Positions 1-35,682 of a DNA stretch of 35,682 nt are shown in pieces; position 1 is the stretch's first letter, and every line of letters starts with the position of its first letter. The translations under genes and the position numbers were made by a program. The stretch covers positions 1 to 35,682 of the forward strand of contig JAUCBJ010008803.1 of assembly GCA_032718475.1 (NCBI GenBank). Direction: 5' to 3'. Below the pieces are notes generated by a model. It made no database searches and was not told the DNA's origin. It worked only from the letters and a program-made list of their open reading frames with translations. This DNA comes from Nemertoderma westbladi. Taxonomy: Eukaryota > Animalia > Xenacoelomorpha.

Positions 1-3000
1 CTCCTTGACCAGGATGATTCTCTATTTAGTTTTATTGTCTGTTCTCCTTGACCAGGATGATTCTCTATTTAGTTTTATTGTCTGTTCTCCTTGACCAGGA
101 TGATTCTCTATTTAGTTTTATTGTCTGTTCTCCTTGACCAGGATGATTCTCTATTTAGTTTTATTGTCTGTTCTCCTTGACCAGGATGATTCTCTATTTA
201 GTTTTATTGTCTGTTCTCCTTGACCAGGATGATTCTCTATTTAGTTTTATTGTCTGTTCTCCTTGACCAGGATGCTTCTCTATTTAGTTTTATTTTCTGT
301 TTTCCTTGGCCAGGATGATTCTCTATTTAGTTTTATTGTCTGTTCTCAGGGCCAGGATGATTCTCTATTTAGTTTTATTGTCTGTTCTCAGGGCCAGGAT
401 GATTCTCTATTTAGTTTTATTGTCTGTTTTCCTTGGCCAGGATGATTCTCTATTTAGTTTTATTGTCTGTTCTCAGGGCCAGGATGATTCTCTATTTAGT
501 TTTATTGTCTGTTCTCCTTTACCAGGAAGATTCTCTATTTAGTTTTATTGTCTGTTCTCCTTGACCAGGATGATTCTCTATTTAGTTTTATTGTCTGTTC
601 TCCTTGACCAGGATGATTCTCTATTTAGTTTTATTGTCTGTTCTCAGGGCCAGGATGATTCTCTATTTAGTTTTATTGTCTGTTCTCAGGGCCAGGATGA
701 TTCTCTATTTAGTTTTATTGTCTGTTCTCAGGGCCAGGATGATTCTCTATTTAGTTTTATTGTCTGTTCTCCTTGACCAGGATGATTCTCTATTTAGTTT
801 TATTGTCTGTTCTCCTTGACCAGGATGATTCTCTATTTAGTTTTATTGTCTGTTCTCCTTGACCAGGATGATTCTCTATTTAGTTTTATTGTCTGTTCTC
901 CTTGGCCAGGATGATTCTCTATTTAGTTTTATTGTCTGTTCTCCTTGACCAGGATGATTCTCTATTTAGTTTTATTGTCTGTTCTCAGGGCCAGGATGAT
1001 TCTCTATTTAGTTTTATTGTCTGTTCTCCTTGACCAGGATGATTCTCTATTTAGTTTTATTGTCTGTTCTCCTTGGCCAGGATGATTCTCTATTTAGTTT
1101 TATTGTCTGTTCTCCTTGACCAGGATGATTCTCTATTTAGTTTTATTGTCTGTTCTCAGGGCCAGGATGATTCTCTATTTAGTTTTATTGTCTGTTCTCC
1201 TTGACCAGGATGATTCTCTATTTAGTTTGATTGTCAGTTCTCAGGACCAGGATGATTCTCTATTTAGTTTTATTGTCTGTTCTCCTTGACCAGGATGATT
1301 CTCTATTTAGTTTTATTGTCTGTTCTCAGGGCCAGGATGATTCTCTATTTAGTTTTATTGTCTGTTCTCCTTGACCAGGATGATTCTCTATTTAGTTTTA
1401 TTGTCTGTTCTCCTTGACCAGGATGATTCTCTATTTAGTTTTATTGTCTGTTCTCCTTGACCAGGATGATTCTCTATTTAGTTTTATTGTCTGTTCTCCT
1501 TGACCAGGATGATTCTCTATTTAGTTTTATTGTCTGTTCTCCTTGACCAGGATGATTCTCTATTTAGTTTTATTGTCTGTTCTCCTTGACCAGGATGATT
1601 CTCTATTTAGTTTTATTGTCTGTACTCCTTGACCAGGATGATTCTCTATTTAGTTTTATTGTCTGTTCTCCTTTACCAGGATGATTCTCTATTTAGTTTT
1701 GTTGTCTGTTCTCCTTGACCAGGATGATTCTCTATTTAGTTTTATTGTCTGTTCTCCTTGACCAGGATGATTCTCTATTTAGTTTTATTGTCTGTTCTCA
1801 GGGCCAGGATGATTCTCTATTTCGTTTTATTGTCTGTTCTCCTTGGCCAGGATGATTCTCTATTTAGTTTTATTGTCTGTTCTCCTTGACCAGAATGATT
1901 CTCTATTTAGTTTTATTGTCTGTTCTCCTTGACCAGGATGATTCTCTATTTAGTTTTATTGTCTGTTCTCCTTGGCCAGGATGATTCTCTATTTAGTTTT
2001 ATTGTCTGTTCTCCTTGACCAGGATGATTCTCTATTTAGTTTTATTGTCTGTTCTCCTTGACCAGGATGATTCTCTATTTAGTTTTATTGTCTGTTCTCC
2101 TTGACCAGGATGATTCTCTATTTAGTTTTATTGTCTGTTCTCCTTGACCAGGATGATTCTCTATTTAGTTTTATTGTCTGTTCTCCTTGACCAGGATGAT
2201 TCTCTATTTAGTTTTATTGTCTGTTCTCCTTGACCAGGATGATTCTCTATTTAGTTTTATTGTCTGTTCTCCTTGACCAGGATGATTCTCTATTTAGTTT
2301 TATTGTCTGTTCTCCTTGACCAGGATGATTCTCTATTTAGTTTTATTGTCTGTTCTCCTTTACCAGGATGATTCTCTATTTAGTTTTATTGTCTGTTCTC
2401 AGGACCAGGATGATTCTCTATTTAGTTTTATTGTCTGTTCTCAGGGCCAGGATGATTCTCTATTTAGTTTTATTGTCTGTTCTCCTTGGCCAGGATGATT
2501 CTCTATTTAGTTTTATTGTCTGTTCTCCTTGACCAGGATGATTCTCTATTTAGTTTTATTGTCTGTTCTCCTTGACCAGGATGATTCTCTATTTAGTTTT
2601 ATTGTCTGTTCTCCTTGACCAGGATGATTCTCTATTTAGTTTTATTGTCTGTTCTCCTTGACCAGGATGATTCTCTATTTAGTTTTATTGTCTGTTCTCC
2701 TTGACCAGGATGATTCTCTATTTAGTTTTATTGTCTGTTCTCCTTGACCAGGATGATTCTCTATTTAGTTTTATTGTCTGTTCTCCTTGACCAGGATGAT
2801 TCTCTATTTAGTTTTATTGTCTGTTCTCCTTGACCAGGATGATTCTCTATTTAGTTTTATTGTCTGTTCTCCTTGACCAGGATGATTCTCTATTTAGTTT
2901 TATTGTCTGTTCTCCTTGACCAGGATGATTCTCTATTTAGTTTTATTGTCTGTTCTCCTTGACCAGGATGATTCTCTATTTAGTTTTATTGTCTGTTCTC

Positions 3001-6000
3001 CTTGACCAGGATGATTCTCTATTTAGTTTTATTGTCTGTTCTCCTTGACCAGGATGATTCTCTATTTAGTTTTATTGTCTGTTCTCCTTGACCAGGATGC
3101 TTCTCTATTTAGTTTTATTGTCTGTTTTCCTTGGCCAGGATGATTCTCTATTTAGTTTTATTGTCTGTTCTCAGGGCCAGGATGATTCTCTATTTAGTTT
3201 TATTGTCTGTTCTCAGGGCCAGGATGATTCTCTATTTAGTTTTATTGTCTGTTTTCCTTGGCCAGGATGATTCTCTATTTAGTTTTATTGTCTGTTCTCA
3301 GGGCCAGGATGATTCTCTATTTAGTTTTATTGTCTGTTCTCCTTGGCCAGGATGATTCTCTATTTAGTTTTATTGTCTGTTCTCCTTGGCCAGGAGGATT
3401 CTCTATTTAGTTTTATTGTCTGTTCTCAGGGCCAGGATGATTCTCTATTTAGTTTTATTGTCTGTTCTCCTTGACCAGGATGATTCTCTATTTAGTTTTA
3501 TTGTCTGTTCTCCTTGACCAGGATGATTCTCTATTTAGTTTTATTGTCTGTTCTCAGGGCCAGGATGATTCTCTATTTAGTTTTATTGTCTGTTCTCCTT
3601 GACCAGGCCAGGATGATTCTCTATTTAGTTTTATTGTCTGTTCTCAGGACCAGGATGATTCTCTATTTAGTTTTATTGTCTGTTCTCCTTGACCAGGATG
3701 ATTCTCTATTTAGTTTTATTGTCTGTTCTCAGGACCAGGATGATTCTCTATTTAGTTTTATTGTCTGTTCTCCTTGACCAGGATGATTCTCTATTTAGTT
3801 TTATTGTCTGTTCTCCTTGACCAGGATGATTCTCTATTTAGTTTTATTGTCTGTTCTCCTTGACCAGGATGATTCTCTATTTAGTTTTATTGTCTGTTCT
3901 CCTTGACCAGGAAGATTCTCTATTTAGTTTTATTGTCTGTTCTCCTTGACCAGGATGATTCTCTATTTAGTTTTATTGTCTGTTCTCCTTGACCAGGATG
4001 ATTCTCTATTTAGTTTTATTGTCTGTTCTCAGGGCCAGGATGATTCTCTATTTAGTTTTATTGTCTGTTCTCCTTGACCAGGATGATTCTCTATTTAGTT
4101 TTATTGTCTGTTCTCCTTTACCAGGATGATTCTCTATTTAGTTTTATTGTCTGTTCTCCTTGGCCAGGATGATTCTCTATTTAGTTTTATTGTCTGTTCT
4201 CAGGACCAGGATGATTCTCTATTTAGTTTTATTGTCTGTTCTCCTTGACCAGGATGATTCTCTATTTAGTTTGATTGTCTGTTCTCCTTTACCAGGATGA
4301 TTCTCTATTTAGTTTTATTGTCTGTTCTCCTTTACCAGGATGATTCTCTATTTAGTTTTATTGTCTGTTCTCAGGACCAGGATGATTCTCTATTTAGTTT
4401 TATTGTCTGTTCTCCTTTACCAGGATGATTCTCTATTTAGTTTTATTGTCTGTTCTCCTTTACCAGGATGATTCTCTATTTAGTTTTATTGTCTGTTCTC
4501 CTTGACCAGGATGATTCTCTATTTAGTTTGATTGTCTGTTCTCCTTTACCAGGATGATTCTCTATTTAGTTTTATTGTCTGTTCTCAGGACCAGGATGAT
4601 TCTCTATTTAGTTTTATTGTCTGTTCTCCTTTACCAGGATGATTCTCTATTTAGTTTTATTGTTTGTTCTCAGGACCAGGATGATTCTCTATTTAGTTTT
4701 ATTGTCTGTTCTCCTTTACCAGGATGATTCTCTATTTAGTTTTATTGTCTGTTCTCAGGGCCAGGATGATTCTCAATTTAGTTTTATTGTCTGTTCTCCT
4801 TGGCCAGGATGATTCTCTATTTAGTTTTATTGTCTGTTCTCCTTGACCAGGATGATTCTCTATTTAGTTTTATTGTCTGTTCTCCTTGACCAGGATGATT
4901 CTCTATTTAGTTTTATTGTCTGTTCTCAGGGCCAGGATGATTCTCTATTTAGTTGTATTGTCTGTTCTCCTTTACCAGGATGATTCTCTATTTAGTTTTA
5001 TTGTCTGTTCTCCTTGACCAGGATGATTCTCTATTTAGTTTTATTGTCTGTTCTCCTTGACCAGGATGATTCTCTATTTAGTTTTATTGTCTGTTCTCCT
5101 TTACCAGGATGATTCTCTATTTAGTTTTATTGTCTGTTCTCAGGGCCAGGATGATTCTCTATTTAGTTTTATTGTCTGTTCTCCTTGACCAGGATGATTC
5201 TCTATTTAGTTTTATTGTCTGTTCTCCTTGACCAGGATGATTCTCTATTTAGTTTTATTGTCTGTTCTCCTTGACCAGGATGATTCTCTATTTAGTTTTA
5301 TTGTCTGTTCTCCTTGACCAGGATGATTCTCTATTTAGTTTTATTGTCTGTTCTCCTTGACCAGGATGATTCTCTATTTAGTTTTATTGTCTGTTCTCCT
5401 TGACCAGGAAGATTCTCTATTTAGTTTTATTGTCTTTTCTCAGGGCCAGGATGATTCTCTATTTAGTTTTATTGTCTGTTCTCCTTGACCAGGATGATTC
5501 TCTATTTAGTTTTATTGTCTGTTCTCCTTGACCAGGATGATTCTCTATTTAGTTTTATTGTCTGTTCTCAGGACCAGGATGATTCTCTATTTAGTTTTAT
5601 TGTCTGTTCTCCTTGACCAGGATGATTCTCTATTTAGTTTTATTGTCTGTTCTCAGGGCCAGGATGATTCTCTATTTAGTTTTATTGTCTGTTCTCCTTT
5701 ACCAGGATGATTCTCTATTTAGTTTTATTGTCTGTTCTCCTTGACCAGGATGATTCTCTATTTAGTTTTATTGTCTGTTCTCCTTGACCAGGATGATTCT
5801 CTATTTAGTTTTATTGTCTTTTCTCAGGGCCAGGATGATTCTCTATTTAGTTTTATTGTCTGTTCTCCTTGACCAGGATGATTCTCTATTTAGTTTTATT
5901 GTCTGTTCTCCTTGACCAGGATGATTCTCTATTTAGTTTTATTGTCTGTTCTCAGGACCAGGATGATTCTCTATTTAGTTTTATTGTCTGTTCTCCTTGA

Positions 6001-9000
6001 CCAGGATGATTCTCTATTTAGTTTTATTGTCTGTTCTCAGGGCCAGGATGATTCTCTATTTAGTTTTATTGTCTGTTCTCCTTTACCAGGATGATTCTCT
6101 ATTTAGTTTTATTGTCTGTTCTCCTTGACCAGGATGATTCTCTATTTAGTTTTATTGTCTGTTCTCCTTGACCAGGATGATTCTCTATTTAGTTTTATTG
6201 TCTGTTCTCCTTGACCAGGATGATTCTCTATTTAGTTTTATTGTCTGTTCTCCTTGACCAGGATGATTCTCTATCTAGTTTTATTGTCTGTTCTCCTTGA
6301 CCAGGATGATTCTCTATTTAGTTTTATTGTCTGTTCTCCTTGACCAGGATGATTCTCTATTTAGTTTTATTGTCTGTTCTCCTTGACCAGGATGATTCTC
6401 TATTTAGTTTTATTGTCTGTTCTCCTTGACCAGGATGATTCTCTATTTAGTTTTATTGTCTGTTCTCCTTGACCAGGATGATTCTCTATTTAGTTTTATT
6501 GTCTGTTCTCCTTGACCAGGATGATTCTCTATTTAGTTTTATTGTCTGTTCTCCTTGACCAGGATGCTTCTCTATTTAGTTTTATTGTCTGTTCTCCTTG
6601 GCCAGGATGATTCTCTATTTAGTTTTATTGTCTGTTCTCAGGGCCAGGATGATTCTCTATTTAGTTTTATTGTCTGTTCTCAGGGCCAGGATGATTCTCT
6701 ATTTAGTTTTATTGTCTGTTTTCCTTGGCCAGGATGATTCTCTATTTAGTTTTATTGTCTGTTCTCGGGGCCAGGATGATTCTCTATTTAGTTTTATTGT
6801 CTGTTCTCCTTGGCCAGGATGATTCTCTATTTAGTTTTATTGTCTGTTCTCCTTGGCCAGGATGATTCTCTATTTAGTTTTATTGTCTGTTCTCAGGGCC
6901 AGGATGATTCTCTATTTAGTTTTATTGTCTGTTCTCCTTGACCAGGATGATTCTCTATTTAGTTTTATTGTCTGTTCTCCTTGACCAGGATGATTCTCTA
7001 TTTAGTTTTATTGTCTGTTCTCAGGGCCAGGATGATTCTCTATTTAGTTTTATTGTCTGTTCTCCTTGACCAGGCCAGGATGATTCTCTATTTAGTTTTA
7101 TTGTCTGTTCTCCTTGACCAGGATGATTCTCTATTTAGTTTTATTGTCTGTTCTCAGGACCAGGATGATTCTCTATTTAGTTTTATTGTCTGTTCTCCTT
7201 GACCAGGATGATTCTCTATTTAGTTTTATTGTCTGTTCTCCTTGACCAGGATGATTCTCTATTTAGTTTTATTGTCTGTTCTCAGGACCAGGATGATTCT
7301 CTATTTAGTTTTATTGTCTGTTCTCCTTGACCAGGATGATTCTCTATTTAGTTTTATTGTCTGTTCTCCTTGACCAGGATGATTCTCTATTTAGTTTTAT
7401 TGTCTGTTCTCCTTGACCAGGATGATTCTCTATTTAGTTTTATTGTCTGTTCTCAGGACCAGGATGATTTTCTATTTAGTTTTATTGTCTGTTCTCCTTG
7501 ACCAGGATGATTCTCTATTTAGTTTGATTGTCTGTTCTCCTTTACCAGGATGATTCTCTATTTAGTTTTATTGTCTGTTCTCCTTTACCAGGATGATTCT
7601 CTATTTAGTTTCATTGTCTGTTCTCAGGACCAGGATGATTCTCTATTTAGTTTTATTGTCTGTTCTCCTTTACCAGGATGATTCTCTATTTAGTTTTATT
7701 GTCTGTTCTCCTTTACCAGGATGATTCTCTATTTAGTTTTATTGTCTGTTCTCCTTGACCAGGATGATTCTCTATTTAGTTTGATTGTCTGTTCTCCTTT
7801 ACCAGGATGATTCTCTATTTAGTTTTATTGTCTGTTCTCCTTTACCAGGATGATTCTCTATTTAGTTTTATTGTCTGTTCTCCTTTACCAGGATGATTCT
7901 CTATTTAGTTTTATTGTCTGTTCTCAGGACCAGGATGATTCTCTATTTAGTTTTATTGTCTGTTCTCCTTTACCAGGATGATTCTCTATTTAGTTTTATT
8001 GTCTGTTCTCCTTTACCAGGATGATTCTCTATTTAGTTTTATTGTCTGTTCTCAGGACCAGGATGATTCTCTATTTAGTTTTATTGTCTGTTCTCCTTTA
8101 CCAGGATGATTCTCTATTTAGTTTTATTGTCTGTTCTCCTTTACCAGGATGATTCTCTATTTAGTTTTATTGTCTGTTCTCAGGACCAGGATGATTCTCT
8201 ATTTAGTTTTATTGTCTGTTCTCCTTTACCAGGATGATTCTCTATTTAGTTTTATTGTCTGTTCTCCTTTACCAGGATGATTCTCTATTTAGTTTTATTG
8301 TCTGTTCTCAGGACCAGGATGATTCTCTATTTAGTTTTATTGTCTGTTCTCCTTTACCAGGATGATTCTCTATTTAGTTTTATTGTTTGTTCTCAGGACC
8401 AGGATGATTCTCTATTTAGTTTTATTGTCTGTTCTCCTTTACCAGGATGATTCTCTATTTAGTTTTATTGTCTGTTCTCAGGGCCAGGATGATTCTCAAT
8501 TTAGTTTTATTGTCTGTTCTCCTTGGCCAGGATGATTCTCTATTTAGTTTTATTGTCTGTTCTCCTTGACCAGGATGATTCTCTATTTAGTTTTATTGTC
8601 TGTTCTCCTTGACCAGGATGATTCTCTATTTAGTTTTATTGTCTGTTCTCAGGGCCAGGATGATTCTCTATTTAGTTTTATTGTCTGTTCTCCTTTACCA
8701 GGATGATTCTCTATTTAGTTTTATTGTCTGTTCTCCTTGACCAGGATGATTCTCTATTTAGTTTTATTGTCTGTTCTCCTTGACCAGGATGATTCTCTAT
8801 TTAGTTTTATTGTCTGTTCTCCTTTACCAGGATGATTCTCTATTTAGTTTTATTGTCTGTTCTCAGGGCCAGGATGATTCTCTATTTAGTTTTATTATCT
8901 GTTCTCCTTGACCAGGATGAGTCTCTATTTAGTTTTATTGTCTGTTCTCCTTGACCAGGATGATTCTCTATTTAGTTTTATTGTCTGTTCTCCTTGACCA

Positions 9001-12000
9001 GGATGATTCTCTATTTAGTTTTATTGTCTGTTCTCCTTGACCAGGATGATTCTCTATTTAGTTTTATTGTCTGTTCTCCTTGACCAGGAAGATTCTCTAT
9101 TTAGTTTTATTGTCTTTTCTCAGGGCCAGGATGATTCTCTATTTAGTTTTATTGTCTGTTCTCCTTGACCAGGATGATTCTCTATTTAGTTTTATTGTCT
9201 GTTCTCCTTGACCAGGATGATTCTCTATTTAGTTTTATTGTCTGTTCTCAGGACCAGGATGATTCTCTATTTAGTTTTATTGTCTGTTCTCCTTGACCAG
9301 GATGATTCTCTATTTAGTTTTATTGTCTGTTCTCAGGGCCAGGATGATTCTCTATTTAGTTTTATTGTCTGTTCTCCTTTACCAGGATGATTCTCTATTT
9401 AGTTTTATTGTCTGTTCTGCTTGACCAGGATGATTCTCTATTTAGTTTTATTGTCTGTTCTCCTTGACCAGGATGATTCTCTATTTAGTTTTATTGTCTG
9501 TTCTCCTTGACCAGGATGATTCTCTATTTAGTTTTATTGTCTGTTCTCCTTGACCAGGATGATTCTCTATCTAGTTTTATTGTCTGTTCTCCTTGACCAG
9601 GATGATTCTCTATTTAGTTTTATTGTCTGTTCTCCTTGACCAGGATGATTCTCTATTTAGTTTTATTGTCTGTTCTCCTTGACCAGGATGATTCTCTATT
9701 TAGTTTTATTGTCTGTTCTCCTTGACCAGGATGATTCTCTATTTAGTTTTATTGTCTGTTCTCCTTGACCAGGAAGATTCTCTATTTAGTTTTATTGTCT
9801 GTTCTCAGGGCCAGGATGATTCTCTATTTAGTTTTATTGTCTGTTCTCCTTGACCAGGATGATTCTCTATTTAGTTTTATTATCTGTTCTCCTTGGCCAG
9901 GATGATTCTCTATTTAGTTTTATTGTCTGTTCTCAGGGCCAGGATGATTCTCTATTTAGTTTTATTGTCTGTTCTCCTTGGCCAGGATGATTCTCTATTT
10001 AGTTTTATTGTCTGTTCTCCTTGGCCAGGATGATTCTCTATTTAGTTTTATTGTCTGTTCTCAGGGCCAGGATAATTCTCTATTTAGTTTTATTGTCTGT
10101 TCTCCTTGACCAGGATGATTCTCTATTTAGTTTTATTGTCTGTTCTCCTTGACCAGGATGATTCTCTATTTAGTTTTATTGTCTGTTCTCAGGGCCAGGA
10201 TGATTCTCTATTTAGTTTTATTGTCTGTTCTCCTTGACCAGGATGATTCTCTATTTAGTTTTATTGTCTGTTCTCAGGACCAGGATGATTCTCTATTTAA
10301 TTTTATTGTCTGTTCTCCTTGACCAGGATGATTCTCTATTTAGTTTTATTGTCTGTTCTCAGGACCAGGATGATTCTCTATTTAGTTTTATTGTCTGTTC
10401 TCCTTGACCAGGATGATTCTCTATTTAGTTTTATTGTCTGTTCTCCTTGACCAGGATGATTCTCTATTTAGTTTTATTGTCTGTTCTCCTTGACCAGGAT
10501 GATTCTCTATTTAGTTTTATTGTCTGTTCTCCTTGACCAGAAAGATTCTCTATTTAGTTTTATTGTCTGTTCTCCTTGACCAGGATGATTCTCTATTTAG
10601 TTTTATTGTCTGTTCTCCTTGACCAGAATGATTCTCTATTTAGTTTTATTGTCTGTTCTCAGGGCCAGGATGATTCTCTATTTAGTTTTATTGTCTGTTC
10701 TCCTTGACCAGGATGATTCTCTATTTAGTTTTATTGTCTGTTCTCCTTTACCAGGATGATTCTCTATTTAGTTTTATTGTCTGTTCTCCTTGGCCAGGAT
10801 GATTCTCTATTTAGTTTTATTGTCTGTTCTCAGGACCAGGATGATTCTCTATTTAGTTTTATTGTCTGTTCTCCTTGACCAGGATGATTCTCTATTTAGT
10901 TTGATTGTCTGTTCTCCTTTACCAGGATGATTCTCTATTTAGTTTTATTGTCTGTTCTCCTTTACCAGGATGATTCTCTATTTAGTTTTATTGTCTGTTC
11001 TCAGGACCAGGATGATTCTCTATTTAGTTTTATTGTCTGTTCTCCTTTACCAGGATGATTCTCTATTTAGTTTTATTGTCTGTTCTCAGGGCCAGGATGA
11101 TTCTCTATTTAGTTTTATTGTCTGTTCTCCTTGACCAGGATGATTCTCTATTTAGTTTTATTGTCTGTTCTCCTTGACCAGGATGATTCTCTATTTAGTT
11201 TTATTGTCTGTTCTCCTTGACCAGGATGATTCTCTATTTAGTTTTATTGTCTGTTCTCCTTGACCAGGATGATTCTCTATTTAGTTTTATTGTCTGTTCT
11301 CCTTGACCAGGATGATTCTCTATTTAGTTTTATTGTCTGTTCTCCTTGACCAGGAAGATTCTCTATTTAGTTTTATTGTCTTTTCTCAGGGCCAGGATGA
11401 TTCTCTATTTAGTTTTATTGTCTGTTCTCCTTGACCAGGATGATTCTCTATTTAGTTTTATTGTCTGTTCTCCTTGACCAGGATGATTCTCTATTTAGTT
11501 TTATTGTCTGTTCTCAGGGCCAGGATGATTCTCTATTTAGTTTTATTGTCTGTTCTCCTTTACCAGGATGATTCTCTATTTAGTTTTATTGTCTGTTCTC
11601 CTTGACCAGGATGATTCTCTATTTAGTTTTATTGTCTGTTCTCCTTGACCAGGATGATTCTCTATTTAGTTTTATTGTCTGTTCTCCTTGACCAGGATGA
11701 TTCTCTATTTAGTTTTATTGTCTGTTCTCCTTGACCAGGATGATTCTCTATCTAGTTTTATTGTCTGTTCTCCTTGACCAGGATGATTCTCTATTTAGTT
11801 TTATTGTCTGTTCTCCTTGACCAGGATGATTCTCTATTTAGTTTTATTGTCTGTTCTCCTTGACCAGGATGATTCTCTATTTAGTTTTATTGTCTGTTCT
11901 CCTTGACCAGGATGATTCTCTATTTAGTTTTATTGTCTGTTCTCCTTGACCAGGATGATTCTCTATTTAGTTTTATTGTCTGTTCTCCTTGACCAGGATG

Positions 12001-14941
12001 ATTCTCTATTTAGTTTTATTGTCTGTTCTCCTTGACCAGGATGATTCTCTATTTAGTTTTATTGTCTGTTCTCCTTGACCAGGATGCTTCTCTATTTAGT
12101 TTTATTGTCTGTTTTCCTTGGCCAGGATGATTCTCTATTTAGTTTTATTGTCTGTTCTCAGGGCCAGGATGATTCTCTATTTAGTTTTATTGTCTGTTCT
12201 CAGGGCCAGGATGATTCTCTATTTAGTTTTATTGTCTGTTTTCCTTGGCCAGGATGATTCTCTATTTAGTTTTATTGTCTGTTCTCAGGGCCAGGATGAT
12301 TCTCTATTTAGTTTTATTGTATGATCTCCTTGGCCAGGATGATTCTCTATTTAGTTTTATTGTCTGTTCTCCTTGGCCAGGATGATTCTCTATTTAGTTT
12401 TATTGTCTGTTCTCAGGGCCAGGATGATTCTCTATTTAGTTTTATTGTCTGTTCTCCTTGACCAGGATGATTCTCTATTTAGTTTTATTGTCTGTTCTCC
12501 TTGACCAGGATGATTCTCTATTTAGTTTTATTGTCTGTTCTCAGGGCCAGGATGATTCTCTATTTAGTTTTATTGTCTGTTCTCCTTGACCAGGCCAGGA
12601 TGATTCTCTATTTAGTTTTATTGTCTGTTCTCAGGACCAGGATGATTCTCTATTTAGTTTTATTGTCTGTTCTCCTTGACCAGGATGATTCTCTATTTAG
12701 TTTTATTGTCTGTTCTCAGGACCAGGATGATTCTCTATTTAGTTTTATTGTCTGTTCTCCTTGACCAGGATGATTCTCTATTTAGTTTTATTGTCTGTTC
12801 TCCTTGACCAGGATGATTCTCTATTTAGTTTTATTGTCTGTTCTCAGGACCAGGATGATTCTCTATTTAGTTTTATTGTCTGTTCTCAGGGCCAGGATGA
12901 TTCTCTATTTAGTTTTATTGTCTGTTCTCAGGACCAGGATGATTCTCTATTTAGTTTTATTGTCTGTTCTCCTTGACCAGGATGATTCTCTATTTAGTTT
13001 TATTGTCTGTTCTCCTTTACCAGGATGATTCTCTATTTAGTTTTATTGTCTGTTCTCAGGACCAGGATGATTCTCTATTTAGTTTTATTGTCTGCTCTCA
13101 GGGCCAGGATGATTCTCTATTTAGTTTTATTGTCTGTTCTCAGGACCAGGATGATTCTCTATTTAGTTTTATTGTCTGTTCTCCTTTACCAGGATGATTC
13201 TCTATTTAGTTTGATTGTCTGTTCTCCTTTACCAGGATGATTCTCTATTTAGTTTTATTGTCTGTTCTCCTTTACCAGGATGATTCTCTATTTAGTTTTA
13301 TTGTCTGTTCTCAGGACCAGGATGATTCTCTATTTAGTTTTATTGTCTGTTCTCTTTGACCAGGATGATTCTCTATTTAGTTTTATTGTCTGTTCTCAGG
13401 ACCAGGATGATTCTCTATTTAGTTTTATTGTCTGTTCTCCTTTACCAGGATGATTCTCTATTTAGTTTTATTGTCTGTTCTCAGGACCAGGATGATTCTC
13501 TATTTAGTTTTATTGTCTGTTCTCAGGGCCAGGATGATTCTCAATTTAGTTTTATTGTCTGTTCTCCTTGGCCAGGATGATTCTCTATTTAGTTTTATTG
13601 TCTGTTCTCCTTGACCAGGATGATTCTCTATTTAGTTTTATTGTCTGTTCTCCTTGACCAGGATGATTCTCTATTTAGTTTTATTGTCTGTTCTCAGGAC
13701 CAGGATGATTCTCTATTTAGTTTTATTGTCTGTTCTCCTTTACCAGGATGATTCTCTATTTAGTTTTATTGTCTGTTCTCCTTTACCAGGATGATTCTCT
13801 ATTTAGTTTTATTGTCTGTTCTCAGGACCAGGATGATTCTCTATTTAGTTTTATTGTCTGTTCTCCTTTACCAGGATGATTCTCTATTTAGTTTTATTGT
13901 CTGTTCTCCTTTACCAGGATGATTCTCTATTTAGTTTTATTGTCTGTTCTCAGGACCAGGATGATTCTCTATTTAGTTTTATTGTCTGTTCTCCTTTACC
14001 AGGATGATTCTCTATTTAGTTTTATTGTCTGTTCTCAGGACCAGGATGATTCTCTATTTAGTTTTATTGTCTGTTCTCCTTTACCAGGATGATTCTCTAT
14101 TTAGTTTTATTGTCTGTTCTCAGGACCAGGATGATTCTCTATTTAGTTTTATTGTCTGTTCTCAGGGCCAGGATGATTCTCAATTTAGTTTTATTGTCTG
14201 TTCTCCTTGGCCAGGATGATTCTCTATTTAGTTTTATTGTCTGTTCTCCTTGACCAGGATGATTCTCTATTTAGTTTTATTGTCTGTTCTCCTTGACCAG
14301 GATGATTCTCTATTTAGTTTTATTGTCTGTTCTCAGGGCCAGGATGATTCTCTATTTAGTTTTATTGTCTGTTCTCCTTTACCAGGATGATTCTCTATTT
14401 AGTTTTATTGTCTGTTCTCCTTGACCAGGATGATTCTCTATTTAGTTTTATTGTCTGTTCTCCTTGACCAGGATGATTCTCTATTTAGTTTTATTGTCTG
14501 TTCTCCTTGGCCAGGATGATTCTCTATTTAGTTTTATTGTCTGTTCTCCTTGACCAGGATGATTCTCTATTTAGTTTTATTGTCTGTTCTCCTTTACCAG
14601 GATGATTCTCTATTTAGTTTTATTGTCTGTTCTCAGGGCCAGGATGATTCTCTATTTAGTTTTATTGTCTGTTCTCCTTGACCAGGATGATTCTCTATTT
14701 AGTTTTATTGTCTGTTCTCCTTGACCAGGATGATTCTCTATTTAGTTTTATTGTCTGTTCTCAGGGCCAGGATGATTCTCTATTTAGTTTTATTGTCTGT
14801 TCTCCTTGACCAGGATGATTCTCTATTTAGTTTTATTGTCTGTTCTCCTTGACCAGGATGATTCTCTAATTAGTTTTATTGTCTGTTCTCCTTTACCAGG
14901 ATGATTCTCTATTTAGTTTTATTGTCTGTTCTCAGGGCCAG
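1..14941 (+). repeat. Intronic 42/43-bp tandem array (~350 units, runs off the left edge); unit equals the 3' splice site region of the downstream exon
   Basis: Consensus CTCCTTGACCAGGATGATTCTCTATTTAGTTTTATTGTCTGTT (43 bp). Variants differ almost only at one spot: CTCCTTGACC, CTCCTTTACC, CTCCTTGGCC (43 bp) and CTCAGGGCC, CTCAGGACC (42 bp). The last unit reads TGTTCTCAG|GGCCAGGACGAC directly into coding sequence. Confidence 0.98.
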
Positions 14942-15139
14942 GACGACACCGGTAGATTCAGTTGGAACCGTGGCGCCGTTCTCATATTTCTCCCCGGGAT
15001 CCATGAGATCGAGTTTATGAATGAGTTGCTAACTGATATCAGATCCATCTACAAACTCTGGGTACTCCGATTGCATTCTTCCTTGCCGATAGACGAACAA
15101 CGTAAAGTGTTCCGTAAGCCGGATATTGGAAAGAGAAAG
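14936..15139 (+). CDS. TDRD9: Internal exon A of TDRD9/spindle-E DExH-box RNA helicase (RecA2 domain, motif IV region)
   Basis: Translates GQDDTGRFSWNRGAVLIFLPGIHEIEFMNELL...LRLHSSLPIDEQRKVFRKPDIGKRK, with the LIFLPG and LHSS motifs of DEAH/RHA helicases. Acceptor TTCTCAG| at 14935, donor AAG|GTTTGT at 15140, 204 nt, phase 0-0. In-frame alternative acceptors at 14899 and 14941 make the start slightly uncertain. Confidence 0.9.
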
Positions 15140-15365
15140 GTTTGTTATATAGATTGCATGTAGAACATGGATAATTAAACATATCGGTACGGTGCAGAAA
15201 CAACCCCCTTGAACTACGTCCCAGAGGATACTGGTAATCATTTAGATAATTTTTTTAGATTTCCGGTCCATAAATGAATATCTAAATGGAATTATCCAGT
15301 CAGACACCTACACTGGCCTAGTTAGATTTTGATTAGTTGAGTTCGATTATCACAAGTTACGGAAG

Positions 15366-16437
15366 ATGCCATCGCTAGCTGATAAATTCTCGGAAGTACA
15401 TGCCCTCACAGTCACTTCAATAAGGAATGTTAAATCGAAGAAAAGTATGTCTGTCGAGGACGAGAAAAATCTGTTAGAATCAATCGAAGAACTCAACACT
15501 TTTGGCATCCCTTAGCGATCTCGCTGAATCGAGAGAATAAACTATTGAGAGTAAAAACACTGTAATACAGGTTAAAGATGAACTCTTGGGACTAACACGG
15601 CAGGGAAAAGAGGATTTAGGACGCGGATCGTGAACCTGGGATTACTGGATGTTCTACTCGAGGTAGACAGGATAAGCAGGCTGGGAGGACTGCTTCACGC
15701 AACTTAACCCAACAGCGACGAGGTTGTTCCGGTTCCGCAAACTGGGAGGACTGCTTCACGCAACTTAACCCAACAGCGACGAGGTTGTTCCGGTTCCGCA
15801 AACTGGGAGGACTGCTTCACGCAACTTAACCCAACAGCGACGAGGTTGTTCCGGTTCCGCAAACTCAAGGGAACAGTCGGTGGACTCCCTCCTAGCTCCA
15901 AGATATCCTCCTACCAGTACCCATGCAGGCTACCATGCAGATCATCGAGAGGATGCAGAAACTCCGGCATTGCAGGATGGTCTCAGTAAGGGAAACGAGT
16001 GGAAAACGGTTCCGGAACGGCGGAAGCCACAGCGCTCAACTGCAACGGTTGTTATAAGAATAGGAACTGGCCTTGTTGTCGCCCCAAGGACAGATCGCGT
16101 ACAACTGGCGCATATTTACGTTGGCCGCTTCGCAAAAAATGTCACATCAAATGACGTTAAAGATTATCTCACAACGGAAAAACTTCCGTTTACTGATGTC
16201 ATCCGCATCAATAGCGAACACGACTCTGAATCACATGCTTTCCATATCACCTGCCTGCAAGATGATCGTGAGAAACTGATAGATCCCAACAACTTGGAAG
16301 ATGGGTTACTCATCCAGAACTACCTTCTATCTGAACAGGAACGTACAGCTCTAGGGTTGAAACCAAGATTCCGGAATGGATCAGACTTGGGAAACAGACC
16401 AAACCCTACCAGACCCAACATCCAAGATAATAATTGA
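15366..16437 (+). pseudogene. LINE ORF1 (disrupted N-terminal part; open C-terminal 15880-16437 with RRM-like domain)
   Basis: ATG at 15366 opens MPSLADKFSEVHAL...EDEKNLLESIEELN (coiled-coil-like), then the frame breaks. C-terminal HIYVGRFAKNVTSNDVKDYL...AFHIT...KLIDP resembles RRM-like LINE ORF1 domains. It lies directly upstream of the APE domain. Confidence 0.6.
15681..15863 (+). repeat. Three perfect 61-bp tandem copies within the LINE ORF1 region
   Basis: CTGGGAGGACTGCTTCACGCAACTTAACCCAACAGCGACGAGGTTGTTCCGGTTCCGCAAA at 15681, 15742 and 15803. Confidence 0.95.
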
Positions 16438-18541
16438 CAACAAAATAATTTAGCTTCCGAGCTACAAACAACTAAGGACACTATTATCACACTGTGGAAC
16501 ATCGAAAGCTTTAACTATGTTCGAGAAAATTTAACAGACGATGAACTCTATATTAACAGCGATATCCTACTTTTTAATGAAACATTTTTAACCGCTTCGA
16601 CTGCTCAAAATCAGGGCTACTACACCTATGTGGAACCAGCACAACAATCACAGAATGGCAGGCCATCGGGTGGATTGATGACCCTAATACGACCACATCT
16701 AGACCCTTCTCTCATTGCAAAAACAAATAATTATATTATAAAAATAATTATATACGACTTTGTGGTATATTCTTTTATTTTACTTTACACCTGAAACAAC
16801 TGTCGCCGAAATAGTGCTCACTATCTCGGAAGCACTAACTCACACCGAACAAGGTAATATTATAATCATTGCAGGGGACTTTAATTGCAGGATAGACAAA
16901 GGAACCCTGGGCGACCGTCTTACATAAAGCATGTCGGAAGTGGGATTCGTGAGAGTCGACTACTACGAAAAATCGTCAAAGACTTACATATCGCCGCAAG
17001 GAGAAAGTGCAATAGATCTATTTTTCGTAAAATACCCAAAGTCGTTCCCAGAAACGTTAACCTCGGCATTTGTAGTAAACCACCCTATACGAAAACACCA
17101 ACGGGTTACATTGACAATGAATTCTAAAGTTACTCCACCATGTGAGATTGCCCCGAGAAGCCAGCCACACAGCAGGAATCTAAACCTTGAAGTTCTTCAA
17201 CATCATCCGTCTCTTGCGTCTATTGAACAGCTTGGAGCTCAAAGTGATGTTAATCTTCCAACAAATAATCTAAATGTTGCTCTACTAGAATCTACAATCC
17301 AGCGCTACAACGTTAAACAACATGGTAAGAAATGGTTTGACTCTGAGTGCCAGTCTATGAAACTCGAAGTTTTGGAAGCGATGAAACATCGAAATTACTC
17401 CAAGGGGAATCTTCTGCATTTTGGACCCTCCGACGGCGGTATAAACGACTTCTCAAAAGAAAAAGACGGGCATACGAAGAATCGCAGTAGTTAGACCAAA
17501 TTAATGACTCTGAAATTGATCCCTGGACTCTATTTAGCGTTAAAAAAGGCAATAAACTCTACTCGCACTTCCAGACTCTTCTTGGGGAGGAGAATAAACC
17601 TTTAGGCTGCCCAGATGCCCCGGAAATCAGTGAAGGAGAACGACTAACTACGGAATGGTATAATAATCCAATTGAAAATGAAGAAATAATTGAGACGGTT
17701 TACCATGCTTCCACCAAAATAGCATCCGGACTCGATGGGGTCTTCTATGAACACTTAAAGCAGGCTGTTCCGTTCATACTAGTTTATCTTACTATTTAAT
17801 CTCTGTTTGAATACCGGCAAGATTCCCGAAGCTTGGCGAACTAGTGTAATCAAGGTTATTTACAAGGGAAAAGGAAAAATTACTGATCCAGACAACTACC
17901 GGGGAATTGCGTTAATTTCGGTAATGTTAAAAGTTCTCACGTCCATCATAAGTAAACGCGTTCGATCGTTTCTCCATAAAGAAATCCCACTGGAACAATT
18001 CGGCTTTCAAGCTGGAAAATCGAGAATACAAGCGATAAACAAACTTTTAATCGACATCAGCGACACGATACACTCAGACAACCATAGGGAACGAGTAGTC
18101 TATGCTCTATTTATAGATTTTAGAAAAGCTTTCGACATGGTCAGCCGTTCCAAGCTCCTTTGCAAAATTTACAAGCTAGGAATTAAAGGGAAAACGTTTG
18201 TCTTGATTAAGAAATCTGTTTAATAATTCTATTAGAATTTTCGACGGTTTGCGTTTATCAGAACCCATTGGACAACTACGAGGAATATTACAGGGAGATT
18301 GTTTATCGCCTCTTCTTTTCATCCTCTTTATAGCTGACCTAGCTACGGCGCTAAGAAATGTCTGCCACCTGATCAAATTTATATTCTTTGCCGACGATTT
18401 GGTAATCTATTCGCGGAATAGGGAAACTATTCAACTACATTGTATGCTTAAACACTCTCCACCAATGGTGGAGATCAATGGTTGAATTAAATGGTATGGA
18501 GTTAAATATTATTAAAACGAAAATAGTCAAGTTTAGAAAAG
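16438..18541 (+). pseudogene. Host LINE ORF2, 5' part (AP endonuclease + reverse transcriptase), frameshifted
   Basis: APE and RT motifs in the correct order over ORF pieces 16438-16794, 16931-17494, 17807-18223 and 18249-18485. Ends at KTKIVKFRK where the nested insertion begins. Confidence 0.9.
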
Positions 18542-19362
18542 TTCTACCTGTCAGACAGAGGTCGAACTGTAGTCATTAGCAAATCGCAGTCTACTGTACA
18601 AGAGATTACCTGTGGTGTACCGCAAGGTAGTATATTAGGTCCTCTGCTTTTTGTATGCTATGTAAATGATATGATAAGTAGTATAGATCCCGATTTTAAA
18701 CTCATTTTATATGCCGACGACAGTGCTCTTATTTTCTCTCATAAAGATCCTATCCATATTTCCCAAAAGTTAAGTGCAGTTCTAGAATCCTGTAATGAGT
18801 GGTTGGTTGATAATAAGCTATCCATTCACTACGGTAAGACTGAAAGTATTTTGTTTGGTTCCAAAAGAAAGTTAAAGAAGGTAACTAAGTTTGAAGTCAC
18901 TAGTAATGGACATAAGATTGAAAATAAAAAGGAAGTTAAATATTTAGGCGCCACATTGGATAACTGCTTATCAGGAGAAAGTACAGTGAAAAATATTTTC
19001 TCGAAAGTTAACAGTAGGCTTAGGTTTCTATACAGAAATGAAAATAGTTTAAACACCGACTCCCGCAAGTTACTTTGCTCTTCTTTAATACAGTGTCACA
19101 TGGACTATGCATGCCCTTCTTGGTATGAAGGCTTAACCAAACAGCTTAAATGTAAATTACAAGTAGCTCAGAATAAAGTAGTACGATTTATTAAAGACTA
19201 CAAACCTAGGCACCACCTAACTCCAGATGACTTTTCTGAATCTGGACTACTTAACTTAGATAGTAGAGTTAAGCAGCTACGACTTAACCATGTGCATAAA
19301 GTGTATAATGGTAAATGTCCCAATTACTAAAACAAAAATTCAACAGAGTTCGCGATACACAC
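18542..19362 (+). mobile_element. Nested fragment of a second LINE family (CR1/L2-group-like RT C-terminal half)
   Basis: A second, non-identical set of RT motifs: ITCGVPQGSILGPLLFVCYVND, LYADDS, NKLSIHYGKT, KYLGATLD, LIQCHMDYACPSW, KLQVAQNKVVRFI. These repeat motifs already present in the host at about 18280-18410. Confidence 0.88.
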
Positions 19363-20288
<926 letters not shown>

Positions 20289-20320
20289 AAGTAGTTTGCT
20301 TGCTGACATCCGATAGAAAT

Positions 20321-20815
20321 AAGATAAATAAAACGATATGTTAGCCAGTTTTCATTTATTATCTATACCTATAAAAATCAAATTCTGTCTGTCTCTCTCT
20401 GTGTTCGAACTCCTCCAAAAACGGGCGGAGGGATTGTGCTGGGACTTGACATGTGTGTATAACTTTAACCAGCGGTCGTTATAGGCCACTTTTCGAAAAG
20501 TATAATTCACTTTCGGTACCGGTACTGGGTACCGGTACGTCAGTAGGCCTATGCCGGTAGCGGGAAATACAGGGTATCATGCCTCGGGTATTGCCTGCTA
20601 GTATTATATAAAAAATGGTTTAATTATGTTTATTAGATATTACAGATAAATAAATAATATATATATACAGTAAAAATAGTAAAAATACAGTAAAAAAGGT
20701 TTTTTACTGTATATATATATTATTTATTTATCTGTAATATCTAATAAACATAATTAAACCATTTTTATATAATATAATAAATGAAAACTGGCTAACATAT
20801 CGTTTTATTTATCTT
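20321..20815. repeat. AT-rich foldback inverted repeat (arms about 115 bp), left arm interrupted by a Helitron
   Basis: 20321-20361 plus 20602-20676 is the reverse complement of 20701-20815. The centre is TACAGTAAAAAA-GG-TTTTTTACTGTA at 20686-20711. Confidence 0.93.
20362..20601 (+). mobile_element. Non-autonomous Helitron (240 bp)
   Basis: Starts TCTATACCTATAAAA and ends CTAG, inserted between A and T with no target duplication. There is an imperfect GC-rich hairpin just before the 3' end. The other palindrome arm preserves the empty site CATTTATTA|TATTATATA. Confidence 0.85.
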
Positions 20816-21332
20816 TATTAATCTACAATACATTGTCAATTTCATATATTTTTAACATTGATTGATTTTTATCATGAATCTGAATATTATATTTATACTT
20901 TTAACATTTCCGACGGTTCGGTCTAATTTTAACAGGTATATAATTCACAAGTTACAGGGCGATCCATAGTCTTGGACACCCTGTGTATGTATGTGTTATA
21001 TTATTGTGCTATTATATTACTTATAATTAATTAATATAGTTTACCCCGATCTGGGGTGTTTATTCTAAAAAAAATGTAATTAAGATTGTATTATTATAGT
21101 CACAGTATTGAAACCATTTTTTTAAACTACCAGTACCTGTATTAGCATAATATAATTGTTACACTTCCAAGTTTCAGTTTAATGGCATTCCAATTCAAAC
21201 TGTTAGAAATACATCGCAAATATGAATTTGTAGTTATGGTTTTCATATCAGTATAGATAGTCCTGACCACTAAACTTATCCTAAAGAAACTGTTTATCTC
21301 GGTTGGTTTACGGCTATTTATCGTCTCTCTAG

Positions 21333-21532
21333 GTTATTATCTCCAGCAACGTGGCCGAGAGTTCCATCACAGTTGCCGACATCGTTTACGTTATCGATTT
21401 CTGTTTAACTAAAGAGATGAGTTGCGACCCCGAGACCAACTTCCAGTGTCTCAAACTGTCCTGGGCTAGTAAAGCGAACGCCACCCAGCGGAAGGGTAGG
21501 GCTGGTCGGGTCGCATGTGGCAAGGTTTATAG
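21333..21532 (+). CDS. TDRD9: Internal exon B of TDRD9/spindle-E (helicase motifs V and VI)
   Basis: Translates VIISSNVAESSITVADIVYVIDFCLTKEMSCDPETNFQCLKLSWASKANATQRKGRAGRVACGKVYR. AESSxTV, VIDFCLT and LSWASK are characteristic of TDRD9/Spn-E rather than other DHX proteins. Acceptor TCTCTCTAG| at 21332, donor TAG|GTAGGT at 21533, 200 nt, phase 0-2. Confidence 0.95.
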
Positions 21533-22777
21533 GTAGGTGTGTACGCCATCTAGCGGAAGGGTAGGGCTGGTTGGGTCGCATGTGGCAAGGTTTATAGGTA
21601 GGTGTGTACGCCATCTAGCGGAAGGGTAGGGCTGGTTGGGTCGCATGTGGCAAGGTTTATAGGTAGGTGTGTACGCCATCTAGCGGAAGGGTAGGGCTGG
21701 TCGGGTCGCATGTAGCAAGGTTTATAGGTAGGTGTGTACGCCATCTAGCGGAAGGGTAGGGCTGGTCGGGTCGCATGTGGCAAGGTTTATAGGTCGGTGT
21801 GTACACCATCTAGCGGTAGCAAGGTTTATAGGTAGGTGTGTACGCCATCTAGCGGTAGCAAGGTTTATAGGTAGGTGTGTACGCCATCTAGCGGTAGCAA
21901 GGTTTATAGGTAGGTGTGTACGCCATCTAGCGGTAGCAAGGTTTCTAGGTAGGTGTGTACGCCATCTAGCGGTAGCAAGGTTTCTAGGTAGGTGTGTACG
22001 CCATCTAGCGGTAGCAAGGTTTCTAGGTAGGTGTGTACGCCATCTAGCGGTGGAAAGGTTTATAGGTAGGTGTGTACGCCATCCAGCGGAAGGGTAGGGC
22101 TGGTCGGGTCGCATGTGGCAAGGTTTATAGGTAGGTGTGTTCGCCATCTAGCGGAAGGGTAGGGCTGGTAGGGTCGCATATGGCAAGGTTTATAGGTGGG
22201 TGTGTATGTACGCCATCTAGCGGTAGCAAAGTTTATAGGTAGGTGTCTACGCCATCTAGCGGTAGCAAGGTTTATAGGTAGGTGTATACGCCATCTAGCG
22301 GTAGCAAGGTGTAAAGGTAGGTGTGTACACCATCTAGCGGTAGCAAGGTTTATAGGTATGTGTGTACGCCATCTAGCGGTAGCAAGGTTTATAGGTAGGT
22401 GTGTACGCCATCTAGCGGTAGCAAGGTGTAAACGTAGGTGTGTACACCATCTAGCGGTAGCAAGGTTTATAGGTAGGTGTGTACGCCATCTAGCGGTAGC
22501 AATGTTTATAGGTAGGTGTGTACGCCATCTAGCGGTAGCAAGGTTTATAGGTGGGTGTGTGTGTACGCCATCTAGCGGTAGCAAGGTTTATAGGTATGTG
22601 TGTACGCCATCTAGCGGTAGCAAGGTTTATAGGTGGGTGTGTGTGTACGCCATCTAGCGGTAGCAAGGTTTATAGGTAGGTGTGTACGCCATCTGGCGGT
22701 AGCAAGGTTTATAGGTAGGTGTGTACGCCATCTGGCGGTAGCAAGGTTTATAGGTAGGTGTGTACGCCATCTAGCGG
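21478..22777 (+). repeat. 65-bp / 39-bp tandem array derived from the 3' end of exon B and its splice donor (~28 units)
   Basis: The 65-bp unit is the last 55 nt of the exon plus GTAGGTGTGT (five units from 21478, two more at about 22076-22210). The 39-bp unit ACGCCATCTAGCGGTAGCAAGGTTTATAGGTAGGTGTGT is an internal 26-bp deletion derivative. Confidence 0.97.
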
Positions 22778-22934
22778 ACTCTACGTTGCCTTTCGTACGT
22801 CAGAATCCGCTAACATAAACAAAAAACTATTTCATTGAAAATTTACTTCATTATTTTTGTGACGTGTTGTTTCAGGGGTTTGGGGTGTGGTGTGAAATCC
22901 GCGACAGTTTTACCACATAGGTTTATGATTTCAG

Positions 22935-23044
22935 GTTAGTGCCGCGACAGTTTTACCACGGAGTTTTATCAGAGTTTGCTACCCCAGAGATGCAGCGAGC
23001 TGCTTTGTCCAACGTTGTCCTGAAGACAAAGGAACTGGATATTG
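22935..23044 (+). CDS. TDRD9: Internal exon C of TDRD9/spindle-E (end of RecA2 into winged-helix/HA2 region)
   Basis: Not in the ORF track. AG from exon B plus G completes Arg, then LVPRQFYHGVLSEFATPEMQRAALSNVVLKTKELDI(G), matching the YRL...PEMxR..L...LKxKxLDxG pattern of the family. Acceptor ATTTCAG| at 22934, donor G|GTGAGT at 23045, 110 nt, phase 2-1. Confidence 0.92.
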
Positions 23045-23545
23045 GTGAGTTACGATATGTGGAGTGGTCCTAAGGGACTCGATATCGGTGAGTCTCTACA
23101 GGTACAAGCTCTCTACTGATGATAATCCACAACATGGCCTATGTCCACAGGGTCTTCAGTCCTGGTTCCCATGATCACAGTTGCTCGTGGAGCATTGTCT
23201 GATTTATGGCTCAGTAAGGTACTGGAAATACTGTGGGTGATATCGGTAGAGTTTCTTCATGCAAAACCTTTTCTGAGTTTATTTTTAACACATTCATACG
23301 CATTGCATCCACTTCGTCAGCCATTGCATTAAAAATATTTTCCTCTTATAGAAGGTCATTCTCATCGACAATCTGGATGTGCTCCAGTAAAGACTCTTTT
23401 AATTTTATGTAAGCCTCCTCAGCGCCAGCTTTAAGAGAATTAACTCAGAAAGTGAATGGGCTGTCTGCTCTTCAACTGCTTGATTTGTTAAAATATTAAT
23501 TAATTTATAGCAGTATTTCATTTTCCTTGTAACTTGACATTTAAA

Positions 23546-23626
23546 TGCACCATGGCGGCGTTGCACCATGGCGGCGTTGCACCATGGCGGCGTTGCACCA
23601 TGGCGGCGTTGCACCATGGCGGCGTT
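23546..23626. repeat. Five 16-bp GC-rich tandem copies
   Basis: GCACCATGGCGGCGTT at 23547, 23563, 23579, 23595 and 23611. Confidence 0.95.
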
Positions 23627-34200: not shown

Positions 34201-35682
34201 GGTACAAACCTGCATCCTTGGCGCAGTCTATACAGGCACTAATGCAAAGTACAAACCTGTATCCGTGACGCAGTCTATACAGGCACTAATGCAAAGTACA
34301 AACCTGTATCCTTGGCGCAGTCTATACAGGCACTAATGCAAAGTACAAACCTGTATCCTTGGCGCAGTCTATACAGGCACTAATGCAAGGTACAAACCTG
34401 TATCCTTGGCGCAGTCTACAGGCACTAATGCAAGGTACAAACCTGCATCCTTGGCGCAGTCTATACAGGCACTAATGCAAAGTACAAACCTGTATCCGTG
34501 ACGCAGTCTATACAGGCACTAATGCAAAGTACAAACCTGTATCCTTGACGCAGTCTATACAGGCACTAATGCAAAGTACAAACCTGTATCCTTGGCGCAG
34601 TCTATACAGGCACTAATGCAAAGTACAAACCTGTATCCTTGGCGCAGTCTATACAGGCACTAATGCAAAGTACAAACCTGTATCCTTGGCGCAGTCTATA
34701 CAGGCACTAATGCAAAGTACAAACCTGTATCCTTGGTGCCTGTATCCTGTAACAAACCTGTATCCTTGGCGCAGTCTATACAGGCACTAATGCAAGGTAC
34801 AAACCTGTATCCTTGACGCAGTCTATACAGGCACTAATGCAAAGTACAAACCTGTATCCTTGGCGCAGTCTATACAGGCACTAATGCAAAGTACAAACCT
34901 GTATCCTTGGCGCAGTCTATACAGGCACTAATGCAAAGTACAAACCTGTATCCTTGGCGCAGTCTATACAGGCACTAATGCAAAGTACAAACTTGTATCC
35001 TTGGCGCCTGTATCCTGTAACAAACCTGTATCCTTGGCGCAGTCTATACAGGCACTAATGCAAGGTACAAACCTGTATCCTTGGCGCAGTCTATACAGGC
35101 ACTAATAAGTACAAACCTGTATCCTTGACGCAGTCTATACAGGCACTAATGCAAAGTACAAACCTGTATCCTTGGCGCAGTCTATACAGGCACTAATGCA
35201 AAGTACAAACCTGTATCCTTGGCGCAGTCTATACAGGCACTAATGCAAAGTACAAACCTGTATCCTTGGCGCCTGTATCCTGTAACAAACCTGTATCCTT
35301 GGCGCAGTCTATACAGGCACTAATGCAAGGTACAAACCTGCATCCTTGGCGCAGTCTATACAGGCACTAATGCAAAGTACAAACCTGTATCCTTGACGCA
35401 GTCTATACAGGCACTAATGCAAAGTACAAACCTGTATCCTTGGCGCAGTCTATACAGGCACTAATGCAAAGTACAAACCTGTATCCTTGGCGCAGTCTAT
35501 ACAGGCACTAATGCAAAGTACAAACCTGCATCCTTGGCGCAGCATATACAGGCACTAATGCAAAGTACAAACCTGCATCCTTGGCGCAGTCTATACAGGC
35601 ACTAATGCAAAGTACAAACCTGTATCCTTGGCGCAGTCTATACAGGCACTAATGCAAAGTACAAACCTGTATCCTTGGCGCA
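25250..35682 (+). repeat. Intronic 45/47-bp tandem array (~220 units, runs off the right edge)
   Basis: Consensus CCTGTATCCTTGGCGCAGTCTATACAGGCACTAATGCAAAGTACAAA (47 bp), with a 45-bp variant lacking TA and shorter variants containing CCTGTATCCTGTAACAAA or ACTAATAAGTAC. Confidence 0.98.

Follow-up and report, generated by a model that had tools for sequence, protein, structure and literature searches.

Why do the intron–exon boundaries of a single gene recur as the units of tandem repeats, and is a special process that grows giant introns from splice sites needed to explain them? The question is raised by a 35,682-nt stretch of the Nemertoderma westbladi genome (contig JAUCBJ010008803.1 of assembly GCA_032718475.1), the whole of which was analysed and is referred to here as the window. 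The original prediction, made from the letters of this DNA, inferred a genome-wide mutational or splicing-coupled process, with survivorship of junction-spanning duplications as the main alternative. Our analysis suggests that the repeats are probably "mirage"-type minisatellites in TDRD9/spindle-E, that is, chance local duplications that were tolerated by selection and amplified by slippage or unequal exchange.

Three exons of the host gene are present in the window:
14936..15139, forward strand: exon A of TDRD9/spindle-E, 204 nt, with its acceptor in the last unit of array A.
21333..21532, forward strand: exon B, 200 nt, with its donor in the unit that opens array B.
22935..23044, forward strand: exon C, 110 nt.

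Joined together, these exons form one open frame of 171 residues, and exon B matches the Helicase_C domain. The best solved-structure match of exon B is Spindle-E (9nhs_G, E 1.4e-20), with DHX36 behind it at 4e-15, and among the 120 homologues listed of 241 found, those that are named are mostly TDRD9 or spindle-E. Judged by sequence, the host gene is TDRD9/spindle-E, a gene with a role in piRNA biology, and its helicase C-terminal domain is nearest to that of Spindle-E/TDRD9; the C-terminal Tudor domain expected of such a protein would fall beyond the window. Identity over the three exons is 54–62% among the best 20 homologues, none of which is close, and the homologues P0057, P0051, and P0083 align with exons A–C without a gap across all 171 residues.

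Copies of the splice junctions of this gene lie beside all three exons:
1..14935, forward strand: array A, a run of 349 or more 42/43-bp units, each holding about 31–34 nt of intron end and 8–11 nt of the start of exon A.
21478..22777, forward strand: array B, 28 units, of which the first is functional, with a further partial unit of 14 nt.
22868..22926, forward strand: single decayed copy of the region around the exon C acceptor, with an 18-nt exact core at 22899–22916 and an unused AG at 22874–22875.
23064..23093, forward strand: decayed copy of the exon C donor, with a 19/22 core, a 7-nt deletion, and GTGAGT kept, unused in the spliced contig of run X4.

Array A begins before base 1 of the window, and its 349 unit cores, close to the roughly 350 predicted, are a lower bound. 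The units are spaced at 43 bp (253 cases), 42 bp (92), or 48 bp (3) and are about 98.7% identical to their class consensus, and the last of them continues into exon A at 14936. The 42-bp type retains the native acceptor and the first exon bases. In the 43-bp type, pyrimidines occupy the place of the native acceptor and CAG/G (the slash marking the splice site) is kept six bases further on. The native acceptor AG is gone from 257 of the 349 units (74%) and kept in the other 92, the CAG/G lying 6 nt past the native site is retained in all 349, and 440 decoy YAG/G acceptors precede the real acceptor of exon A. A fixed 128-bp higher-order unit, which appeared as a row of the tandem repeat finder (TRF) output, was ruled out, the autocorrelation of the 42-bp units being flat beyond lag 1. 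The 42-bp units are rarely neighbours (13 adjacent pairs versus 24 expected, P ~0.001).

Array B consists of seven 65-bp units, each with 55 exon and 10 intron nucleotides, and 21 units of a 39-bp deletion type, a total of 28 that agrees with the number predicted. The native 9-nt donor is exact in 20 units including the real one, and thus in 19 of the 27 copies. The array contributes 1245 nt to intron B–C, whose 1402 nt would shrink to 157 without it and to about 100 if the exon C copy were also removed. The functional units of arrays A and B each differ from their copies at two positions in the exon part. A 14-nt imperfect direct repeat flanks array B at both ends, and could be a microhomology or just the partial last unit.

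The two copies at exon C diverge more than the array units do. The copy of the acceptor region, predicted to lie 43 bp upstream as an 18-bp repeat, was found as an 18-nt exact match (25/28 over a longer stretch) between 22899 and 22942. This match is wholly exonic, covering positions +8 to +25, and a junction-like TTTCAG/G, 59 nt upstream of exon C, is gained only in a gapped reading in which 22 GT-rich bases replace 6. The predicted 19/22 copy of the donor was recovered 43 nt downstream. The number 43 recurs, being the unit length of array A and the lag of each exon C copy (22899–22942 and 23029–23072); this may be chance, the gapped exon C readings giving 59 and 50.

The claim that four of the six visible junctions carry a tandem copy on their intronic side holds. 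Copies at the exon A acceptor, the exon B donor, and both exon C sites each beat 2000 of 2000 shuffles (P ~0.0005, which is the floor of 2000 shuffles), and in the same test the exon A donor (P 0.18) and the exon B acceptor (P 0.84) had no significant junction copy. The four cases had also been presented as several stages of one expansion. This part of the prediction is not borne out, the two-copy cases at exon C being the most decayed and therefore relics rather than young seeds.

The units were said to be the gene's own junctions, and the homologues agree. They have the same length between the exon A start and the conserved motif, and some (P0083 and P0077) have a G-x-D start similar to that of exon A. 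Since the homologues keep this length and align gaplessly from residue 1, copying went from gene to repeat. The first step of the preferred reading, the duplication of a 43–65 bp stretch across a junction, is shown by the sequence. The polarity of the copies follows from geometry, an intact exon being possible only at the exon-side end. The consistent polarity that had been reported, with acceptor copies upstream and donor copies downstream, is real as a pattern and carries no weight as evidence, because any tolerated junction-spanning duplication must show it.

The rest of the introns was filled by other means:
15769..20288, forward strand: broken non-LTR retrotransposon remnants, with an endonuclease-like piece and reverse transcriptase pieces.
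20321..20815, unstranded: presumptive MITE-like element with 42-nt perfect terminal inverted repeats.
23546..23626, unstranded: array of five 16-bp units inside a dispersed repeat, away from the junctions.
25250..35682, unstranded: 47-bp satellite of at least 10.4 kb in the intron after exon C.

Intron A–B (6193 nt) is filled with the retrotransposon remnants. A 61-bp repeat in three copies lies at their 5′ edge, and the second reverse transcriptase piece (~18527–19330) is apparently nested and ends in a (TCTA)49 tract resembling a 3′ tail. The MITE-like element also has a perfect internal 66-nt inverted repeat (20611–20676 and 20701–20766). Past exon C, high-depth dispersed repeats occur within 23104–23626, starting about 10 nt beyond the donor copy, and one of them is also found in X4. 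The 16-bp unit, present five times here, is single in the loose ends of other genomic copies, and the array therefore arose locally.

The 47-bp satellite gave no convincing match to exons A–C or to arrays A and B. A link between it and the TDRD9 exons or the two arrays was rejected at scores of 12–26 against shuffle means of 16–18, the top score of 26 being to exon A on the minus strand. The satellite contains a 3662-nt exact internal repeat at a lag of 5211 as well as 1.5-kb exact repeats, which reflect either very recent block duplication or assembly duplication. It starts at the end of an open frame of 85 residues (25072–25329) that has no Pfam match, a 72-residue frame ahead of it likewise gave no Pfam match, and the start of the exon following exon C was looked for and is absent from the window. 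The four introns seen whole or in part comprise two that grew by junction arrays and two that grew by other means. The broader proposal, which makes splice sites the main source of giant introns, is not supported: intron A–B is filled with retrotransposon remnants, and the 47-bp, 16-bp, and 61-bp arrays lie off the junctions.

Whether junctions are special can be judged against this background. A scan of 14946–25249 for matches of at least 19/22 found seven local-duplication clusters, three at junctions and four elsewhere, and none in 30 shuffles. By alignment, copies occur at 4 of 6 junctions and, elsewhere in the introns, at 4 of 106 tiles (Fisher P 1.6e-4), in a window that was chosen for the pattern and with a score cut that was fixed after the junction scores had been seen. 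With the TCTA tract left out and array A and the 47-bp array included, a binomial test covers eight events; its P is 1e-4 when all non-array intron is the reference and 0.003–0.03 when the old intron is assumed to be ~1.5 kb. The junction excess is real within the window, but it is ascertained.

An excess as large as this is a point against survivorship. It is also an argument for a splicing- or transcription-coupled bias, in which, for example, breaks or R-loops at exon-edge pauses are repaired with local duplication and so seed giant introns; the 43-nt lag of both exon C copies, equal to the array A unit, could be read in the same direction. We nevertheless consider such a bias unlikely. The window was selected for the pattern and polarity is uninformative, the unit lengths are unlike one another (42/43, 65/39, and 50 or 59 in gapped readings), and equally large arrays stand away from junctions in the same gene. 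Survivorship of duplications in a repeat-prone genome, as argued here, would fit best. Exon-internal duplications would have been purged, much of the intron is young transposon, and short ancestral introns would leave few placements that are free of a junction, so that most tolerated duplications would be expected to touch a junction and no special mutator would be needed.

The subsequent growth of array A is recorded in its variants. Exact blocks of 460–611 nt recur at lags of 3.7–9 kb, for which reason we infer that the array was enlarged by unequal exchange. Under the preferred reading, such exchange would have homogenised array A and enlarged it, likely to tens or hundreds of kilobases, while the exon C copies decayed. 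Sequencing runs give a lead on its true size. Seven runs share words with the window, three of them more than half, and contigs of five were compared. The single-copy contig of run X2 has a depth of 9.36, and three unit-variant contigs have depths of 5952, 2771, and 2734, or 636, 296, and 292 times single copy. The same three variants have mean 31-mer counts of at most 46, 34, and 20 in the window, where the contigs were assigned to variant classes from their mismatch counts. The X2 depth suggests 9–15 times the window content, or ~3,000–5,000 units (130–220 kb) in this intron or elsewhere, an estimate that halves with a one-allele baseline and falls to ~700–1,150 units with a baseline of 41.6.

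Run X1 points in the same direction, with summed unit depths of ~80,000–178,000 versus 27. Run X3, from the same sample as X1, contradicts the estimate, its 794 versus 12.9 (~61-fold) being under even the count in the window. Unit depth thus varies strongly among runs, even between two runs of one sample, and contig depth is not copy number; the size estimate is accordingly a lead only, and we regard the proposition that array A is well above 50 kb as evenly balanced. A more far-reaching version joins size and bias, with a junction-biased process that keeps duplicating exon edges and an acceptor copy that ran away to thousands of units, occupying at least 100 kb or other loci. We hold this to be improbable, the special mutational process being the unlikely part of it.

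How the gene is spliced through so many decoys is known from one contig of one run, which reports the dominant form, as contigs hide rare isoforms. This 957-nt contig belongs to X4, which is labelled "DNA?" and is read here as RNA because the contig is intronless; none of the runs listed is recorded as RNA. Exon A is matched at positions 692–901 of the record (14933–15142 of the window, with loose ends on both sides) and exon C at 383–496. Between the two matches lie 195 nt, exactly the length predicted if exon B is spliced at its first donor, and the loose ends agree with the neighbouring exon sequences. All six junctions use the exon-proximal site, including the acceptor that ends array A, the donor that opens array B, and both authentic sites at exon C, in agreement with the prediction that the functional exon is the terminal unit. 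A second in-frame AG lies six bases into exon A (14936–14941), forming a tandem acceptor of which the X4 contig takes the first. X4 has no contigs on the array A units, and this was not counted as evidence.

The consequences of using a decoy can be predicted. Of the 14 acceptor decoys that lie nearest, 13 lead to stops, and early stops follow the use of the second donor of exon B, at 21597, and of both alternatives at exon C, at 22876 and 23087; taken together, the tested alternatives at exons B and C and most decoys lead to stops or frameshifts. In the preferred reading, the proximal site would win, as it does in the dominant contig, and the rare products of splicing errors at decoys are likely degraded. 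The exception is the nearest decoy acceptor at 14899, which would lengthen the protein by 12 in-frame residues and bring in no stop, yet is unused in the X4 contig; because it is in frame and free of stops, decay does not explain its non-use. The motif CTAAT, which we take to be branch-point-like, occurs in the penultimate unit of array A alone (14863–14905), just upstream of 14899. Choice of the terminal acceptor is likely made by exon definition or by a local branch point; at donors, first-site choice has been demonstrated by experiment for the F7 VNTR (PMC1557585).

Purifying loss of decoys was ruled out, the units that lack the native AG keeping another CAG/G after a longer pyrimidine run. 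The opposite proposal is that the decoys are functional and tune TDRD9 dose or timing through leaky splicing or through slow transcription of a very long intron. The CAG/G in 349 of 349 units and the exact donor in 19 array B copies are compatible with this, as is the report that the length of the ABCA7 VNTR alters exon skipping (PMC5954066). Nonetheless, the sole spliced contig is canonical and the native AG has been lost from 74% of the array A units, and we consider a function of this kind very unlikely.

It is highly improbable that array A was a pre-existing dispersed satellite which inserted at the end of the intron and supplied exon A with its acceptor and first codons. Just 8–11 exon nucleotides are held in common, and the X1 and X2 unit depths, far beyond the window content, mean that copies might exist elsewhere. 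Against this, the start of exon A keeps the length found in homologues, resembles the G-x-D motif of P0083 and P0077, and is aligned without gaps, and array B, which shares 55 coding nucleotides, cannot fit such an origin.

That the arrays are assembly artefacts is hardly credible; in the read comparison, which covers array A and exon C, array A unit contigs were found in the DNA runs X1, X2, and X3, and the array A/exon A junction and the unit variants are present in X1 and X2, which come from two studies. Within array A, 1145 different 31-mers can be counted, and exact repeats reach 611 nt at most. Both X1 and X2 recover 22780–23133 with 0 differences, which confirms both exon C copies, either run possibly being itself the source of the window. 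Run X5 (word share 0.06) has 0 contigs on exon C and counts neither for nor against. For array A and for exon C, the artefact reading has largely been refuted.

Tandem repeats at exon edges have known relatives. In lancelets, "mirages" are tandem repeats across exon–intron boundaries that occur at both edges of exons and leave splicing normal, with instability reported and, as far as these accounts go, an unclear mechanism (PMC3087553, PMC3902484). They have a unit size of about 10–160 bp and are described in the amphioxus genes Adh3, the globins BflGb6 and BflGb9, PGBD5, and troponin C (PMC3087553, PMC3902484). The repeats described here share this anatomy. Arrays A and B and the exon C donor copy have units that span the exon–intron boundary, as does the exon C acceptor copy when gapped, and the array units measure 42/43 and 65/39 bp. 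As in the amphioxus accounts, both 5′ and 3′ edges are involved, AG or GT signals are kept in many copies, splicing is regular (in the X4 contig), and a homogenised interior is accompanied by a distinct boundary unit. The difference is one of number, the amphioxus mirages having 2–7 units of 60–160 bp (10–72 bp in Adh3) in these reports, against at least 349 in array A. The Branchiostoma homologue P0005 is 62% identical to the host gene here over 149 residues.

Human junction VNTRs, for which intact splicing and instability are likewise reported (PMC1557585, PMC5954066), resemble array B. They include F7 IVS7 (37 bp, 5–9 units), CBS IVS13 (15–20 units), 6-16 (with 25 pseudo-sites), lamin B2, and PDGF (PMC1557585). 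Their first unit spans the donor, and splicing takes the donor lying furthest upstream, as in array B; unlike the repeats here, those covered in that account are on the donor side only and have far fewer units (PMC1557585). CBS and 6-16 are also spliced at the next pseudo-sites (PMC1557585), a use that contigs such as ours could miss. The VNTR in ABCA7 intron 18 has a 25-bp unit in 12 to about 427 copies and reaches 10.7 kb (PMC5954066). It too is a multi-kilobase array that runs from a splice site, contains cryptic sites, and has much lengthened its intron, but in that account it stands on the donor side and its unit begins at the GT without exon bases (PMC5954066). Array A, by comparison, is on the acceptor side; 14.9 kb of it lies in the window, and its full length may be some ten times greater. 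In the literature searched (titles and abstracts, mostly without subscription journals, a weak basis for negatives), neither a genome-wide enrichment test nor an acceptor-side array as large as this was found. The type is already known; the acceptor-side array stands out for its size, possibly a record.

Array A is thus a clean and very large acceptor-side counterpart to the known donor-side VNTRs. With at least 440 YAG/G decoys, and with the nearest one ignored in the dominant contig although it is in frame and free of stops, it offers a natural test of 3′ splice site choice. For annotation, the locus is a warning that false exon edges abound in such introns. The finding would gain much greater weight if a genome-wide junction-biased mutation were true, or if the array exceeded 100 kb or were dispersed; were the runaway expansion real, the last acceptor would be reached by the spliceosome only after thousands of nearly identical decoys. 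The locus illustrates one route from a short duplication at a coding edge to satellite DNA.
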